A stretch of 63,494 bases of DNA, counting the filler. It is 7 parts of 7 records of this genome, joined end to end, with 100 filler letters (N's around TTAATTAATTAA, not from the genome) between each part and the next. Parts side by side here need not be neighbours in the genome. Positions count along the whole stretch, not along the records: positions 1 to 13,376 come from DRR378314_1204; 6 more parts are not named here. One strand, given 5' to 3'. Positions 4,235 to 20,099 of this stretch are shown piece by piece. The notes under the pieces were generated by a model. It made no database searches. It worked only from the letters and a program-made list of their open reading frames with translations, and was not told the origin of the DNA. Position 1 is the stretch's first letter. Every line of letters begins with the position of its first letter. The translations under genes were made by a program, and so were the position numbers.

Positions 4235-4361
4235 GCCGCGATTTGCTGCACAATGGCACCGCAAACATTCCAGTCTTGATGCCTGAGCTTGCGCGACGCC
4301 GCCTTGCCGCCTAAAAGCCGAACATCGCCCCGATATCGTTCGCCCTTGCCGGAGATCTCCT

Positions 4362-5030
4362 ATGCCCGTCGCCCCGCTTCCTGCCTCCAGCTTCCTGTTC
4401 GGAGCCTCGGAGCGCCTCAGGGCGATGCTCGACAGTCAGGCCACGGATGTGCATCTGGCCACCGGGGATGTGTTGTTCGAACGGGGCGACGAAGGCGATG
4501 CGCTCTATGCGATCATCTCCGGTGCGCTGGAAATCTCGACGCTTTCGGCAGCGGGGCGGAAGCTGTCACTCGACATGATGCGCCCCGGTGCAATTCTTGG
4601 CGAAATCGCCATGTTCGACCCCGGAGAGCGCACCGCCACCGCCACCGCTGCGGAGCCAAGCCACCTGCGCCGTCTGCGTCATCGCGATGTGCTGGGACAG
4701 CTGACCAGGCACCCGGAATTGGCCGGCGATATGCTGAAGCTTGCCGGACAGCGCATGCGCTGGATGAACACCCAGCTGAACGAACAGGTGTTCCTGCCGA
4801 TGCCGGTGCGGCTGGCGCGCAAGCTGCTGTATCTCACGCCGGCGGATGGCAACGGCCATCTCAGCCTGTCGCAATCCGAACTCGCGGAATTTGTCGGCGC
4901 AACCCGTGAAGCGGTCTCCAAGACGCTGTCCAACTGGCGCAAGGCCGGGCTGATCGAGATCAGCCGCGGCGGGCTGCAGCTGAAGGATCGCGGCGGGCTG
5001 GCGGTTCTGGCCGATCCCGAGGGCATCTGA
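4362..5030 (+). CDS. Crp/Fnr-family transcriptional regulator, cNMP-binding CRP type
   Basis: GEIAMF..ERTATA phosphate-binding cassette; HTH LSQSELAEFVGATREAVSK with CRP-like R-E..(K) recognition helix; no FNR cysteines. Confidence 0.93.
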   Translation: MPVAPLPASSFLFGASERLRAMLDSQATDVHLATGDVLFERGDEGDALYAIISGALEISTLSAAGRKLSLDMMRPGAILGEIAMFDPGERTATATAAEPSHLRRLRHRDVLGQLTRHPELAGDMLKLAGQRMRWMNTQLNEQVFLPMPVRLARKLLYLTPADGNGHLSLSQSELAEFVGATREAVSKTLSNWRKAGLIEISRGGLQLKDRGGLAVLADPEGI

Positions 5031-5111
5031 GATGCACGGGCATCAGGGCTGAGATCTTATCCACAGAAAACAACGCATTTTGCGGCCAAGAAGACAAAAA
5101 CCGTCTGCCAA

Positions 5112-5127
5112 TGTGACCTGTTTCACA
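5112..5127. promoter_or_regulatory. Perfect CRP-type binding site TGTGA-cctgtt-TCACA
   Basis: Exact match to TGTGA-N6-TCACA, about 80 bp after the Crp-family gene; centre at 5119.5 equals -41.5 for a start at 5161. Confidence 0.75.
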
Positions 5128-5160
5128 GTCGGCACCTCACGCCCCTGTCATAGAGGTTTC

Positions 5161-5240
5161 AAGGCGGTCATTCTCCTATCCATCCCAATGATCGCCCGTC
5201 CCATCGTGAGCCATGTGTCCGCCCGACACATGGCTCTTTT
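5161..5240 (+). ncRNA. Candidate ~80-nt trans-acting sRNA with anti-Shine-Dalgarno loop
   Basis: 10-bp stem GGCGGTCATT/AATGATCGCC (5163-5196) with loop CTCCTATCCATCCC, then an intrinsic terminator; upstream CRP box; loop is complementary to the hflK RBS. Confidence 0.7.
5208..5240 (+). terminator. Rho-independent terminator
   Basis: 12-bp perfect stem GAGCCATGTGTC-cgccc-GACACATGGCTC followed by TTTT. Confidence 0.85.
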
Positions 5241-5295
5241 GGTTTTGTGGCGCCCCCCCCATCACTGCAGCGGGTATACCGGTGATCCGATACGC

Positions 5296-5323
5296 AAAAC
5301 GGCCGGCCCGATTGGGCCGACCG
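5296..5323 (-). terminator. Rho-independent terminator of degP
   Basis: Minus strand CGGTCGGCCC-aatc-GGGCCGGCCG-TTTT, about 40 nt after the degP stop. Confidence 0.75.
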
Positions 5324-5365
5324 CTATGTGGTTTCCTGCGTGCCCCATGAATGGGGCAGGCCTTG

Positions 5366-6874
5366 TTACTCGTCCAGGTTCAGCGCGACAAACCGCGGTT
5401 CGCCACCACGACGCACCATCAGGAAGATCGACTTGCGCCCAGCCTCCTCGGCAGCCTCGATCTGTGCTTCGAGATCAGTGATGGAGTTGAGCTTATTCTG
5501 CCCTGCCTCGGTGATCACATCACCGGCGCGCAGACCTTTTTCCCATGCGCCCGAGGTTTCATCCACCGACAGGATCACCAGACCGGTCGTCCCCGCATCG
5601 AGGCTCAGGTCTTCACGCATATCATCGCGCACAACGCCGACGGTCAGACCAAGCAGTTCTTTTTCGCCCTCATCCGGCACCGCGCCTTCGCCGGAACCGG
5701 AGCCCGCGTTGTTATTCACCGCGTCCTCCCGGCGGCCCAGCGTGACGCGCAGGGTCTCGGTCTTGCCATCGCGGAACACCACGACACGCACGGTCTTACC
5801 GACCTCGGTGTCGCCGACGCGGCGCACCAGATCGCGAGTGTCCTTGACCTCGAAACCGTCAAAGCTGGTGATCACGTCACGCGCCAGCAGACCAGCCTCC
5901 CTGGCGGGGCCTTCGGGCACATCTGTGATCAGCACACCTTCGTCGTTCTTCAGACCAATTGCCTCGGCCAGATCATCGGTCACATCCTGAATGCGCACAC
6001 CAAGCCAGCCGCGACGGGTCTCGCCAAACTCCTTCAACTGGCTGACCACCTTTGTCACCACATTGGAGGCCATGGAAAAGCCGATGCCGATGGAGCCACC
6101 ATTGGGCGACAGGATGGCGGTGTTCACGCCGACCACTTCGCCGTCCATGTTGAACAGCGGACCGCCCGAGTTGCCACGGTTGATGGCCGCGTCGGTCTGG
6201 ATGTAGTCGTCATAGGATCCCGACAGCGCCCGGTTGCGGGCAGACACGATCCCGGCAGACAGGGAGAACCCCTGCCCAAGCGGATTGCCCATGGCGACAA
6301 CCCAGTCGCCAACGCGGGCGACATCGCTGTCCCCGAACTTGACGAATTTCAGCGGCATTGGAGCGTCCACTTTCAACAGCGCAATATCGGTGTTGGGATC
6401 GGTGCCAACAACGGTTGCGGGCAGAAAATCGGCAGGCTGGCCATCACCGGGAAAGAACTCGATCTCGATCTCATCAGCGCCATCAATCACGTGGTTGTTG
6501 GTGACGATATAGCCGTCCTCGGAAATCACGAAACCCGATCCCAGCGCCGAAGAACGACGCGGGCGGTTGCCACCGCCATTGCGATCCTGGAACTCGCGGA
6601 AGAAGTCCTCGAAAGGGGAGCCTTCGGGCACGATGCCCTGGGGACCGGTCCGCCCTTCGACCACGGTCGATGTGGTGATATTCACCACGGCGGGGCTGAC
6701 CTTTTCGGCCAGCGGCGCGAGGCTTTCGGGCCGTGCCGCTGCCGACAATGTCTGCAGGACCAGCATTGCGGTCCCGAGGACCGCGATCCAGAACAGACGC
6801 CAACCGGTCTGCGTGCGCGGGAGGGCACGGTCCTGGCTCAGTGTCTTGGTACTTGTGATGGGATGCACGGACAT
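5366..6874 (-). CDS. degP: DegP/DegQ (HtrA/Do) periplasmic serine protease with two PDZ domains
   Basis: TNNHV, DIALL and GNSGGPL catalytic-triad motifs; two PDZ-like C-terminal domains; AGGAG SD. Confidence 0.95.
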   Translation of the reverse strand: MSVHPITSTKTLSQDRALPRTQTGWRLFWIAVLGTAMLVLQTLSAAARPESLAPLAEKVSPAVVNITTSTVVEGRTGPQGIVPEGSPFEDFFREFQDRNGGGNRPRRSSALGSGFVISEDGYIVTNNHVIDGADEIEIEFFPGDGQPADFLPATVVGTDPNTDIALLKVDAPMPLKFVKFGDSDVARVGDWVVAMGNPLGQGFSLSAGIVSARNRALSGSYDDYIQTDAAINRGNSGGPLFNMDGEVVGVNTAILSPNGGSIGIGFSMASNVVTKVVSQLKEFGETRRGWLGVRIQDVTDDLAEAIGLKNDEGVLITDVPEGPAREAGLLARDVITSFDGFEVKDTRDLVRRVGDTEVGKTVRVVVFRDGKTETLRVTLGRREDAVNNNAGSGSGEGAVPDEGEKELLGLTVGVVRDDMREDLSLDAGTTGLVILSVDETSGAWEKGLRAGDVITEAGQNKLNSITDLEAQIEAAEEAGRKSIFLMVRRGGEPRFVALNLDE

Positions 6875-7270: not shown

Positions 7271-8158
7271 TCACTCGCGCGCCGCGCCAGCGGTCCCTTG
7301 CGAGGACTTCAGGTAGTTGAAGAACTCGCTGTCGGGAGACAGCACCAACGAGGAGTTGCCCGCCTGCAGCGACCGCGAATAGGCGGTCAGGCTGCGGTAG
7401 AATTCAAAGAACTCCGGATCCGCGCCATAGGCTTCGGCAAAGATGCTGTTCCGTTGTGCATCAGCCTCACCACGAATGACTTCCGCCTCGCGCTCGGCTT
7501 CGGAGACAAGCTCGACCTCGGTCCGGTCGGCCTGGGCACGCACACGCTGTGCGGCCTCTTCACCACGGGCGATCTCGTCGGCGGCTTCGCGTTCACGCTC
7601 AGCGCGCATCCGGGCAAAGGTCGCCTCGAGGTTGGCTTGCGGCAGGTCGGTGCGCTTCAGACGCACGTCGATCACCTCGAGCCCGAGACCTTCGGCCTGT
7701 GCAATGGCACCGTTACGGATGCGCAGCATCAGCGCCGCACGATCCGACGACAGGATGTCGTTGGAGCTGACGGTACCCAGAACTTCACGGGTCTGGTCGC
7801 GCATGATGTTGTCGAGACGGCTTTCGGCAGCGCCGATATTGCCGACACCCACCGCTTCGCGGAAACGACGCACATCGGTGATGCGATAGCGCGCGAAGGC
7901 GTCGACCACCAGGCGGCGGTCGTCCAGAGGTGTGACCTCAAGCGGGCCGACTTCGAGGCTGAGAATACGGTCGTCGTACTTCACCACCTCATCAACGAAG
8001 GGCATCTTGAGGGCGAGGCCCGGGGCCTCCTGCACGTTCACGACCCGGCCAAAGCGCATCACCAGCGCCTTTTCCCGTTCGTCCACGATGAAGACCGCCG
8101 ACAGGCCTGCAAAGACCAGAGCGGCAAGAACAACCAAAGAAATGACAGAGCGGTTCAT
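7271..8158 (-). CDS. hflC: FtsH protease modulator HflC
   Basis: N-terminal TM and SPFH domain; RMRAERER...A.G.E.A and FFEFYRSL motifs; coupled to hflK. Confidence 0.96.
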   Translation of the reverse strand: MNRSVISLVVLAALVFAGLSAVFIVDEREKALVMRFGRVVNVQEAPGLALKMPFVDEVVKYDDRILSLEVGPLEVTPLDDRRLVVDAFARYRITDVRRFREAVGVGNIGAAESRLDNIMRDQTREVLGTVSSNDILSSDRAALMLRIRNGAIAQAEGLGLEVIDVRLKRTDLPQANLEATFARMRAEREREAADEIARGEEAAQRVRAQADRTEVELVSEAEREAEVIRGEADAQRNSIFAEAYGADPEFFEFYRSLTAYSRSLQAGNSSLVLSPDSEFFNYLKSSQGTAGAARE

Positions 8159-9321
8159 CAGTTGTCTCCTCCCGATCGACGGATTTCATTCAGCGGCAGA
8201 TACGGAACGATCCCCTGTCCGCCAGCGCCACTGGTGGTTTCGTCGAGGATGATCTTGTCGACGCGGCTGAACACATCTTCCATCGTTTCCAGATAGAGAC
8301 GCTTGCGGGTCACCTCGGGGGCCTTCTCGTATTCCGCCAGAACGGCGGAGAAGCGCGACGCCTCACCCTGGGCTTCGTTCACCACCTGCGCGCGGTAGGC
8401 CTCGGCCTCCTCGAGCGTCTGGGCGGATTGACCACGGGCCGATGCCAGCTTGCGGTTGGCGTAGGCATCCGCTTGCTTTTCAAGCCGGTCACGTTCCTGA
8501 CCAGCGGATTGCACCTCGCGGAAGGCGTCCTTGACCGGCTCCGGCGGATCGGCGCCGTCAAAGTTGACCCGGACGATGTTGACGCCGGAATCATAGCTGT
8601 CCAGCGTGAACTGGATCAGCTCTTCAAGGCGCTGAGAGATCAAACCCCGGTCGCGGTTGAGGATCGGTGCCAGCTGCGACTGCGCGATAATCTCGCGCAT
8701 GGCGGATTCAGACACCGCCTGAATGGTCGCTTTGGGGTCGCGCAGGTTGAAGAGATACTGATCCGGCGCGGAGATGTTCCAGACCACCTGGAAATCCACG
8801 TCGATGATGTTCTCATCTCCCGTCAGCATCAGACCAGCGTCGGAGCCACGGGCGCCCGCGCCGATGCTTTCGGTCTGCTCAACGCTGACCGGAACCACCT
8901 CATAGGTGACAAGCGGCCACGGAGCGAAGTTCAGGCCGGGTTCGCCAACGCTGGAGAATTCGCCCAAGAACAGCTCCACGGACTTCTCTTCCGTTTTCAC
9001 GGTATAGAAGCTGCCGTAAACCCAGAGGCCCGCCGCCACCAAGGCCGCCAGTGCGACGCCACCTTTGGAAAAGAGCGGGCTGCCACCGCCAGAGCCGCCA
9101 CCTTGCGGGCCCTTGCCGTTGCCACCGCCGCCACGACCGCCCATGAGGACGCGCAGCTGCTCCTGCCCTTTCTTCACCAGCTCGTCGATCTCGGGGATCT
9201 GGTTGTCTTCCGGACGGCGGCCACCGCCACCGCTACCGTCACCACCACCATTATTGCCCCGGTTGCCTCCGCCGCCGGAGGAACCGCCGCCCCCCCAGGG
9301 GCCACCACTGTTCCCAGCCAT
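8158..9321 (-). CDS. hflK: FtsH protease modulator HflK
   Basis: Gly-rich GGPWGG N-terminus, TM, MLTGDENIIDV and APEVTRKRLYLETM; start MAGNSGG follows AGGAG. Confidence 0.96.
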   Translation of the reverse strand: MAGNSGGPWGGGGSSGGGGNRGNNGGGDGSGGGGRRPEDNQIPEIDELVKKGQEQLRVLMGGRGGGGNGKGPQGGGSGGGSPLFSKGGVALAALVAAGLWVYGSFYTVKTEEKSVELFLGEFSSVGEPGLNFAPWPLVTYEVVPVSVEQTESIGAGARGSDAGLMLTGDENIIDVDFQVVWNISAPDQYLFNLRDPKATIQAVSESAMREIIAQSQLAPILNRDRGLISQRLEELIQFTLDSYDSGVNIVRVNFDGADPPEPVKDAFREVQSAGQERDRLEKQADAYANRKLASARGQSAQTLEEAEAYRAQVVNEAQGEASRFSAVLAEYEKAPEVTRKRLYLETMEDVFSRVDKIILDETTSGAGGQGIVPYLPLNEIRRSGGDN

Positions 9322-9370
9322 GTGTCTCCTATCCATCTCTCCCCGCCGTATCAGCGGATATTGCCCTCTA

Positions 9371-9398
9371 ACCTGTGGTCACCGCGCCGATATTCAAG
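9371..9398 (-). promoter_or_regulatory. Possible sigma32/RpoH promoter upstream of hflK
   Basis: Minus strand CTTGAA-N14-CCACAGGT; the -35 fits well and the -10 is degenerate. Confidence 0.35.
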
Positions 9399-9428
9399 GC
9401 GGAGCAGCTCCCAAAGTGACCGAACGCG

Positions 9429-10784
9429 TCAAAGCGTCCGGACAGGGGTTTTTAGTGTTACCAATTCTTCCGACATGGTCGGATGAACTGCAACAGTTTG
9501 GTCGAAATCTTCCTTTGTCGCGCCCATCTTGACGGCAATTCCCGCCAGCTGGATCATCTCGCCCGCACCGGGTGCGACAATATGACAGCCCAGCACCTTG
9601 CGGCTGGCCTGACTTACAATCAGTTTCATCAGCACACGCTGCGCCCGCCCGGCAAAGCTCTGCTGCATCGGCTTGAAGGACGTCGAATAGACCTCGATCG
9701 TTTCCTGTTCTGCCGCCTCTTCTTCGCTTAGGCCGATGGTGCCCATTTCCGGCTGCGTGAAGATCGCAGTGGGGATCAGCTCGTGGTCGGGGCTGGTGGG
9801 ATTGCCGTTGAACACGGTCTCCACGAAGGCCATGCCCTCGCGGATCGCCACCGGGGTCAGGTTGACGCGATCGGTCACGTCGCCGATCGCATAGACCGAC
9901 GGCACTGCCGTCTGACTGTATTGATCTACCTTGATTTCGCCGCCCTTGCCGCGCGCGATGCCCAACTCCTCCAGCCCGAGGTCATCCGCATTCGGGTTGC
10001 GGCCGGTGGCAAACATCACCTGATCGAACAGGCTTTCGTCACCATTGGTGGCCTTGACCCAGATCTGGTCGCCTTCCTTGCGCATCTCCAGCACGTTGGT
10101 GCCGAGTTTCAGGTCGATGCCGGACTGGATCATTTCCTCGGCCACCAGACCGCGCGCTTCCTCGTCAAAGCCGCGCAGGATCTGGGCGCCGCGATAATAC
10201 TGCGTGGTGTCCACCCCAAGGCCGTTCATGATGCCGGCGAACTCGGACGCGATATAGCCGCCCCCCACAATCAGGATACGCTTTGGCAGCGTCTCCAGGT
10301 GGAACATCTCGTTCGAGGTGATCGCCAGCTCGGAGCCCGGGAACTCCGGCACCCAAGGGCGACCGCCGGTGGCGATCAGGATGTGTTTCGCGGTCTTTCG
10401 GGTGCCGTCAGACAGCTCCACCGTGTGGGCATCCGCCAGCTTCGCGCGGGCATCAAAGCTCTCCACGCCGGAGTTTTTCAGCAGGTTGCGATAGATGCCT
10501 TCCAACCGGTCCAGCTCGGTGTTGAGCTTAGTCTTGAAGTGGTCCCAATCGAAGCCCTTGTTCTCAAGGTCCCAGCCATAGGCCCGGCCATCTTCGACCA
10601 TGCCAGCATACTCGGAGGCAAAAACCATCAGCTTTTTCGGCACGCAGCCGCGAATGACGCAGGTGCCGCCATAGCGGTCCTCTTCCGCCAGGGCCACCGA
10701 TGCGCCGCCTGCGGCTGCAACGCGCGCTGCGCGCACCCCACCGGAGCCGCCCCCAATGACAAAAAGATCATAATCAAAGCTCAT
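9429..10784 (-). CDS. gor: Glutathione-disulfide reductase
   Basis: GGGSGG, GGTCVIRGCVPKK redox-active disulfide, HPTMSEE; start at MSFDYDL. Confidence 0.97.
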   Translation of the reverse strand: MSFDYDLFVIGGGSGGVRAARVAAAGGASVALAEEDRYGGTCVIRGCVPKKLMVFASEYAGMVEDGRAYGWDLENKGFDWDHFKTKLNTELDRLEGIYRNLLKNSGVESFDARAKLADAHTVELSDGTRKTAKHILIATGGRPWVPEFPGSELAITSNEMFHLETLPKRILIVGGGYIASEFAGIMNGLGVDTTQYYRGAQILRGFDEEARGLVAEEMIQSGIDLKLGTNVLEMRKEGDQIWVKATNGDESLFDQVMFATGRNPNADDLGLEELGIARGKGGEIKVDQYSQTAVPSVYAIGDVTDRVNLTPVAIREGMAFVETVFNGNPTSPDHELIPTAIFTQPEMGTIGLSEEEAAEQETIEVYSTSFKPMQQSFAGRAQRVLMKLIVSQASRKVLGCHIVAPGAGEMIQLAGIAVKMGATKEDFDQTVAVHPTMSEELVTLKTPVRTL

Positions 10785-19450: not shown

Positions 19451-20099
19451 NNNNNNNNNNNNNNNNNNNNNNNNNNNNNNNNNNNNNNNNNNNNTTAATT
19501 AATTAANNNNNNNNNNNNNNNNNNNNNNNNNNNNNNNNNNNNNNNNNNNNCTCTCTCTCTCTCTCTCTCGCTGTGAACCTCTCCATTTCCTCCCTTTATC
19601 GTCAACACCACCCGGATTCATGGCTACAGCTTGAACGCACAGCTGATGAGATGATACACCGTATAGATGTAGGACTCATTGACTCCGCTGGGTAAAAATT
19701 TCTTGTCATACTTCTATCGCGATATTTTTTTGTGGCAGTTTGCATCGCGAAATCGCTGCAGGTCGAAGCTGCAATTCCCTATTGGTCGATTCGCGCTCTC
19801 CGCAATGCGGGTTGTACTCCTTTGGCATTTGTTTGTGGTGTCAAGTCTGTATTGGCTGTCTCGCACTGTTTGCTGCGCGGTGGGAGTTCGCTGGCTTTCG
19901 TAGCTGTTGTCGAGTCCGCGTCCGTTACGTCGCTCTCTGTTTCCTGCTCTTGTAAAGCTTCTCAGGCTCTCGCTCGAGAAGTCCCTATTCGCTTCCTTTG
20001 CCAACCCCGCAACGCCCTCATACCCTTCTTCGTCGCGTATGCTGTGCTGGATGCGCTTTTGATTGGCACCGCTTCGTCTGTTCTTTTCCTCTGCGAAAG

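Follow-up and report, generated by a model that had tools for sequence, protein, structure and literature searches.

CRP-cAMP-activated small RNAs (sRNAs) of enterobacteria such as CyaR are transcribed from their own CRP-dependent promoters, pair with ribosome-binding sites through a C-rich loop and end in a Rho-independent terminator. Exposed C/U-rich loops directed against Shine-Dalgarno sequences are also carried by CcsR/cuckoo (alpha-r14) and AbcR1/2 of the Rhodobacterales and Rhizobiales. The regulatory RNAs of marine Roseobacter bacteria have been little studied, and signalling through Crp-family proteins is hardly characterised there. Here a DNA stretch of 63,494 nucleotides (nt), seven parts joined by filler and referred to as the window, was analysed for a predicted sRNA gene of about 80 nt (5161–5240, + strand) that follows the gene of a Crp/Fnr-family regulator, and for the proposed pairing of this RNA with the start of the hflK message. 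The best overall explanation, to which a probability of roughly 0.6 is given, is a stand-alone non-coding RNA of some Rhodobacteraceae that is driven by a Crp box and pairs in trans through its loop, with hflK as the top candidate target.

The locus shares with the CyaR type, as far as its sequence can tell, the plan of a short RNA with a CRP-type promoter, a C-rich exposed loop and a terminator. It differs in its alphaproteobacterial host, in the position of the gene directly behind the regulator gene and in having no sequence or Rfam relationship to those RNAs. C/U-rich loops complementary to Shine-Dalgarno regions are common to this RNA and to CcsR/cuckoo and AbcR1/2, whereas the loop motifs here are UCCAUCCC and CUCCUA in place of the CCUCCUCCC of the known families, the gene is single-copy and not tandem, the promoter is of a different type and there is no Rfam match. 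A sequence-only reading of the window, which had proposed the RNA, had pointed to an Rfam scan as a check, and between 3500 and 10500 on both strands no Rfam 15 family was found to overlap 5100–5250 at E values up to 10. The RNA gene is unannotated and belongs to no described family; its kind, the CRP-activated base-pairing sRNA, is already known. Neither the RNA nor, for Rhodobacterales, a Crp-sRNA-hflK circuit was found described in the literature searched. The closest published idea concerns the sra25 RNA of Sinorhizobium meliloti, which is predicted to pair with an HflKC-like 5' untranslated region (UTR), a prediction that its authors themselves rate as of low significance (p > 1e-3; PMC2245857); that is a different RNA in a different organism, with no link to Crp. 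The main text of a survey of R. pomeroyi sRNAs does not mention hflK, Crp, degP or cAMP, and its supplementary sRNA tables could list a homologue (PMC4809877).

The predicted activator site, TGTGACCTGTTTCACA at 5112–5127, is a perfect TGTGA-N6-TCACA palindrome and the only site in the window within one mismatch of this pattern. Since 1.9 such sites are expected by chance at that threshold, one perfect box in 63 kb is unremarkable alone, and the case rests on comparison. The centre of the box (5119.5) plus the 41.5 nt of a class II promoter gives a start at 5161, the site named in the sequence-only reading, whose box was likewise recovered. A -10-like element, TGnCATAGA (5146–5154, + strand, hexamer 5149–5154), lies 21 nt 3' of the box. 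For the comparison 40 loci encoding relatives of the regulator were collected, the closest of which (99%) is that of Tritonibacter scottomollicae, and genome-wide searches used a sister genome (G001, 99% identical, 4.7 Mb) and further related genomes. Box and RNA were found in 27 of the 40 loci in addition to the window, in Tritonibacter/Epibacterium, T. multivorans and Leisingera. In all 28 aligned sequences the box is kept as TGTGA or TGTAA followed by TCACA or TTACA. The spacer between box and CATAA has a constant length of 21 nt across clades with a scrambled sequence, CATAA itself is almost invariant and is preceded by TG in the Tritonibacter clade, and about six variable bases follow before conservation restarts at the predicted class II start position. 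This order of box, constant spacer, CATAA, scrambled discriminator and renewed conservation reads as a promoter placed before a structured RNA.

The spacing is found again elsewhere in the sister genome, which contains seven perfect TGTGA-N6-TCACA sites against none for the reversed control pattern. Three of its six other boxes are intergenic (L086, L089 and L085) and have TATAAC, TAGTAT or TAGGCT exactly 21 nt 3' of the box, which shows that the box-to-(-10) geometry recurs. The failure of a generic sigma-70 consensus scan to flag a promoter at the -10-like element counts against the assignment. On balance the RNA probably has an activator-dependent promoter of the CRP type. The L086, L089 and L085 boxes are themselves candidate members of the same regulon, and one of them stands before a gene whose product begins with MRIIPPLTALVV.

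The 80-nt RNA has a folding energy of -34.7 kcal/mol (z = -7.5), and none of 200 shuffled sequences folded equally well. The 10-bp hairpin and the intrinsic terminator that had been anticipated after 5161 were both found, the former by folding and the latter by folding and by a terminator scan. In hairpin 1 (5163–5196) nucleotides 5163–5172 pair with 5187–5196, giving 10 base pairs (bp) including one G-U around a 14-nt C-rich loop, CUCCUAUCCAUCCC, at 5173–5186. A single-stranded linker, CGUCCCAUCGU (5197–5207), with a conserved G-U-C-C core leads to the 3' hairpin, GAGCCAUGUGUC-CGCCC-GACACAUGGCUC, a GC-rich stem of 12 bp at 5208–5236 that is followed by TTTTGGTTTT; with this run of U residues (U-run) the predicted terminator extends over 5208–5246 and is the most conserved module of the family. 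The alignment supports the fold. RNAalifold gave 19 consensus pairs, eight of them with compensatory changes, and the consensus structure is paired in 99.4% of cells compared with 21–49% for slid controls; the covariation score was reached by none of 500 shuffles. In the stem of hairpin 1 compensatory changes occur at five of eight consensus pairs, and in the 3' hairpin three of 11 pairs covary and the other eight never vary.

Within the loop the 3' half, UCCAUCCC, is conserved and the 5' half is lineage-specific. Columns G40, T41, C43 and C44 of the linker are invariant in alignment A2, and across the 28 sequences the loop motif and the linker G-U-C-C are invariant or nearly so and constitute a conserved single-stranded seed. 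The sequence-only reading had expected box and loop to be conserved in relatives; the box and, within the loop, the 3' half proved to be conserved, and the expectation in part failed for the anti-Shine-Dalgarno 5' half. The U-run past the 3' hairpin is interrupted in Leisingera (CUCUUCCCUUUU) and absent in G093, which counts against the favoured explanation. A small-peptide mRNA was considered and excluded: the alignment, read directly, places the only ATG of the RNA at a distance from the 3' hairpin that differs by 1 nt between clades, so that its frame shifts and the RNA is not a peptide gene.

The hairpins might instead belong to the crp message as its 3' UTR and terminator, with the palindrome acting as an autoregulatory or roadblock site and no separate RNA gene being present. 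In the window no terminator lies between the crp stop codon (5030) and 5208, and crp transcripts must therefore run through the element. RNA-library contigs of relatives (four runs), the sole public RNA evidence that the search recovered, span the box and the hairpins, covering 5110–5245 or 5160–5239 with flanks, and run upstream of the predicted start, which does not favour a separate start; because assembled contigs give no ends, strand or level and extend upstream, they are uninformative on a discrete transcript. Against the 3' UTR stands the finding that box and RNA stay together at a distance from crp, 0.8–1.1 kb past it in L002, L004 and L027 and 1.9 kb past it in G162, and that open reading frames (ORFs) on the minus strand separate them from crp in L002 and L004. 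The constant 21-nt spacing to the -10-like element is typical of a promoter, as is a scrambled discriminator with conservation beyond it, the same geometry is seen at other intergenic boxes, and crp orthologues that lack the element use an ordinary GC-rich terminator. In several Leisingera the gene downstream of the RNA is not degP. A crp 3' UTR is thus a very improbable account of the element, and the RNA is very probably a real sRNA gene of its own. On sequence grounds it is predicted to be an independent, non-coding transcription unit, and the hidden sRNA with a Crp-type promoter has held up: the box, the -10-like element and the distance between them, the point at which conservation begins, the covarying hairpin and the 3' hairpin are conserved together and remain intact apart from crp.

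The covariance model built on these sequences (R1), with which the window RNA scores 97.7 bits, found a single copy in each of four genomes and no copy in G004. Matches to R1 occurred in five of 151 sampled genomes of Rhodobacteraceae. Orthologues of the regulator were present in 20 of 81 relatives, and the RNA accompanied 12 of the 20, all with at least 86% identity, and was absent from the eight with 58–79%. At seven of these eight loci degP lies beyond crp with an ordinary terminator or a small gene in between; at the eighth a box is followed by other sequence. The signature of the 3' hairpin, AGCCAUGYG-N4-12-CRCAUGGCU, has a wider range and was found in 16 of 401 Rhodobacteraceae genomes (one for the control pattern), once per genome, 14 of the 16 occurrences lying between a crp-like gene (57–99% identity) and degP. 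Twelve further crp-flanked loci were examined, and ten of them have a CRP-type box 97–148 nt upstream. The 5' domain of these wider members varies in length and sequence and keeps C-rich motifs (CAUCCCC, CUGUCCC). Judged by sequence, the family is defined by the box, the 3' hairpin and the crp-degP position, and the loop of the Tritonibacter type is one variant.

It could also be that the RNA, though real, owes its function chiefly to the invariant 3' hairpin and not to loop pairing, whether it binds a protein, serves as a sponge or has some role in cis between the convergent crp and degP. The AGCCAUGYG...CRCAUGGCU hairpin is the sole module common to all family members, whose 5' domains differ widely; the eight stem pairs that never vary exceed what termination needs, and 14 of 16 occurrences keep the position between the crp-like gene and degP. 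On the other hand, repeats of any known type of protein-binding motif are missing, every variant carries unpaired C-rich motifs like those of base-pairing sRNAs, and degP appears to have a hairpin of its own at about 5296–5325. A function resting chiefly on the 3' hairpin is therefore quite improbable.

The regulator gene (4362–5030, + strand) encodes 222 amino acids (aa) with a domain that binds cyclic nucleotide monophosphates (cNMP) and a Crp-type helix-turn-helix (HTH) with the recognition helix TREAVSK (PF00027, 1.3e-19; PF13545, 1.1e-16; PF00325, 3.4e-7). Among solved structures the nearest to it are CRP of Mycobacterium tuberculosis (Rv3676, E 2e-26), then GlxR-type chains and Clr (7pza); all combine a cNMP-binding domain with a Crp HTH, at whole-protein E values of only 2e-26 to 2e-20. 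ATREAVSK of the regulator aligns with ASRETVNK of Rv3676, so that an R-E-x-V-x-K helix is common to both (REAVSK and RETVNK), and the nucleotide pocket retains its GE...RT residues. Recognition helices with R-E read TGTGA, and TGTGA-N6-TCACA is the specificity of Rv3676, of GlxR from Corynebacterium and of Clr from S. meliloti. With its cNMP-binding domain, Crp HTH and R-E opening the recognition helix (GATREAVSK, with the CRP-like R-E residues pointed out in the sequence-only reading), the protein falls into the CRP subfamily.

This regulator is an even-odds candidate for the activator of the RNA promoter, in view of its position next to the RNA, its CRP-like recognition helix, the retained residues of its cNMP pocket and the recurrence of the box-to-(-10) spacing elsewhere in the sister genome. 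Two observations weigh against it. A second paralogue with an R-E helix (REVISR) is encoded in the sister genome and could bind the box, and crp orthologues of 61–79% identity occur in the same crp-degP synteny without box and without RNA, those at loci of 61–65% identity among them. The existence of crp orthologues without the RNA shows that the regulator is independent of it and has other work.

More distant Crp paralogues (42–59% identity, from Sulfitobacter, Marinibacterium and others; L029–L033, L035, L037, L028 and L073) have a TGTGA-type palindrome just past their own stop codon, followed by unrelated sequence. The unit 3' of the box holds a 71-aa ORF in L035 and a 51-aa ORF in L073, neither with a Pfam family; their assignment as DUF1127 proteins was dropped, as Pfam gives it no support. 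An arrangement of regulator gene, own operator and small downstream unit seems to recur.

The candidate target hflK (8158–9321, - strand) encodes 387 aa with an SPFH/Band 7 domain. Its start region consists of GAUGGAUAGGAGA (9325–9337, - strand), then CAC, then the ATG at 9321–9319, which is the likely start and opens a protein beginning MAGNSGGPWGGGG. The window contains the 13-mer TCTCCTATCCATC at two places only, 5172–5184 and 9325–9337, both on the + strand, where 0.02 occurrences are expected. The claim that the loop of the RNA is an exact 13-nt complement of the hflK leader was thus correct as to the match and inaccurate as to the loop, since the matching segment is made up of the last stem base and loop positions 1–12. 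The leader segment GAUGGAUAGGAGA includes AGGAG and ends 4 nt before the ATG, and it does cover the Shine-Dalgarno sequence as had been proposed, together with an upstream in-frame AUG.

Several results single out this site in the window and its close relatives. In a scan of 42,298 overlapping 48-nt windows on both strands the hflK start region was the best non-self partner of the loop, with -24.4 kcal/mol against -22.3 for the next. Composition-matched shuffles of the hflK region reached this energy in six of 5000 cases and 13 contiguous pairs in none. In the sister genome the hflK leader is, besides the RNA gene itself, the only site within one mismatch of the 15-nt loop complement. Every one of the ten Tritonibacter-clade loci in which both genes are present keeps a match of 12–13 nt; in T. 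horizontis a change from A to G in the loop yields a G-U pair, with 12 pairs in all.

Other findings are unfavourable to hflK as a shared target. In G004, where no copy of the RNA was found, the leader block AUGGAUAGGAGAC is conserved to the same degree, and GGAUAGGAGAC is conserved in the Leisingera leader. T. multivorans keeps eight contiguous loop-leader pairs, and Leisingera has an 8-nt match in a shifted register, UAUCCGUU with AACGGAUA, that is broken by loop changes in four of 16 Leisingera sequences with the leader unchanged. Among pseudo start sites the Leisingera hflK sites rank at the 2–39% level; these figures alone were used from that ranking, the Tritonibacter rank (about 1%) being discarded as inflated because windows antisense to the RNA gene had been counted, and the window-wide scan taking its place. 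In L. aquimarina hflK is not within three mismatches of the loop complement, and the best complement genome-wide (14 of 15 nt) is the start region of another gene. A loop-by-leader matrix gave cognate pairs no advantage over non-cognate ones outside the Tritonibacter loop. Cofolding of whole molecules was non-discriminating, 58 of 300 shuffled leaders binding equally well, because any G-rich leader pairs with a C-rich RNA.

The longest complement to the own hflK leader was also compared with composition shuffles for each lineage. The resulting p was 0.001 for the window, 0.051 for T. multivorans, 0.036 for Leisingera and 0.028 for G431, where the match runs through the linker (CCUAUCCC). It was 0.42 for G093 and 0.82 for G444, and 0.30–1.0, with no signal, for six divergent variants, which adds to the points against. 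Without the discovery lineage the Fisher p is 0.016 for R1-type lineages, a value that is itself generous since lineages share ancestry, and 0.11 for all lineages; for the divergent variants alone it is 0.76. Conservation of hflK complementarity together with the RNA was accordingly found within the Tritonibacter clade only. The last arm of the proposed circuit, from RNA to hflK, is by sequence not conserved across the family.

These results raise the alternative that the RNA is real and driven by the Crp box, that its match to hflK is a lineage-specific coincidence and that the true targets lie elsewhere and are read by UCCAUCCC and GUCC(C). Most of the hflK pairing comes from CUCCUA in the variable half of the loop, and the conserved half and the linker do not single out hflK. 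The conservation of the leader without the RNA, the lack of a cognate advantage and the all-lineage p of 0.11 fit a coincidence, as does the better complement of L. aquimarina on a different gene and a 13/15 match upstream of another gene (L076) in the sister genome. A coincidence has, however, to contend with 13 contiguous pairs over a Shine-Dalgarno sequence that no shuffle in 5000 reproduced and that form the unique best site in a 4.7-Mb genome. It has also to contend with a Tritonibacter-type loop that is invariant in ten of 11 clade members where promoter spacers are scrambled, and with the p of 0.016 for the remaining R1-type lineages. Coincidence is on the unlikely side, with a substantial chance of being right. 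Direct targeting of hflK within the Tritonibacter/Epibacterium lineage is a tentative proposal, at somewhat less than even odds, and that hflK is a conserved target of the whole family is improbable. Repression of hflK by the RNA, as first proposed, therefore stands as a pairing candidate in that lineage and does not extend to the family, where the complementarity is not general and the leader is conserved without the RNA.

The two alternative complements have features of their own. In L. aquimarina (G005) the best site, L080, lies over the ribosome-binding site of a gene that is embedded in AT-rich DNA and whose product starts MSVSQFEKMVAESQEKV and looks coiled-coil by eye. The 13/15 match to the Tritonibacter loop complement at L076 lies 16–30 nt upstream of a gene with the N-terminus ..SDFETFLRLMTTQ, which presumably resembles FlgD.

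In the favoured explanation, a Crp-box-driven RNA that pairs in trans, a cNMP-bound dimer of the Crp family would bind the box and recruit RNA polymerase, the likeliest activator being the regulator encoded just upstream with its TGTGA-type recognition helix. The RNA would be made when the cyclic-nucleotide signal is present. Through its exposed C-rich loop, and possibly the linker, it would pair in trans with purine-rich translation-initiation regions and block ribosome binding. In the genus Tritonibacter hflK would be the top candidate, and as the 13 contiguous pairs cover its Shine-Dalgarno sequence, the signal would lower HflKC, a modulator of the FtsH protease.

A more ambitious version holds that the locus is a modular roseobacter arm leading from cyclic nucleotides to an sRNA. 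Box and 3' hairpin would be frozen between crp and degP and the seed rewired in each lineage. The Tritonibacter/Epibacterium seed would be tuned, by its 13-nt anti-Shine-Dalgarno match, to shut down hflK, which would put HflKC under the control of cAMP or cGMP, and a further role that depends on its sequence would fall to the 3' hairpin. Taken as a whole this version is unlikely. The locus is in any case a sharply defined module, in which a single operator and a single promoter geometry go with one RNA of about 80 nt and one leading candidate target. Were the circuit true, it would provide the first direct output for a roseobacter cNMP regulator and would link cyclic-nucleotide signalling to membrane and membrane-protein quality control by HflKC-FtsH. 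The family offers a natural example of an sRNA with a frozen promoter and 3' hairpin and an evolving seed region.

The hflK start region has further features. AGCCATGTGTC, the 5' arm of the 3' hairpin (5209–5219), occurs also at 9316–9326, so that around the hflK start (-16 to +6, 9316–9337) an unbroken run of 22 nt is complementary to two separate RNA segments, in helices that would be non-collinear. Outside the window, T. scottomollicae alone has the second match in full, the other species having GACUUAUGGCU or GACAUAUGGCG. An origin of the RNA as a duplication of the hflK leader is excluded in its simple form, since the two shared segments are non-collinear. The 5' region of hflK (9322–9440, - strand) contains a conserved promoter-like block, CTTGAAT...CACAGGTTAGA, and a conserved short hairpin (CCGC...GGCGG) stands directly 5' of the pairing site. 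The in-frame upstream ATG, at 9336–9334 inside the pairing site, is present in the Tritonibacter clade and not in Leisingera. Downstream of hflK lies hflC (7271–8158, - strand), which encodes 295 aa and also matches SPFH/Band 7 in the domain search.

On the other side of the RNA a degP/htrA-type serine protease of 502 aa (5366–6874, - strand), identified by domain search, is transcribed towards crp and the RNA. In the interval from the RNA to the degP stop codon a GC-rich inverted repeat, GGCCGGCCC...GGGCCGACC, occupies 5296–5325, with a short T-run on the minus strand; it is probably the terminator of degP itself, as read by eye, and was not flagged by the terminator scan. The start region of crp (4348–4364) contains a palindrome, GGAGATCTCC, whose UCUCCUAU equals the first 8 nt of the hflK-matching RNA segment in the same sense, an identity that is probably due to chance. 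Elsewhere in the window, at about 19548–19595, a (GA)n run adjoins a stretch of N.

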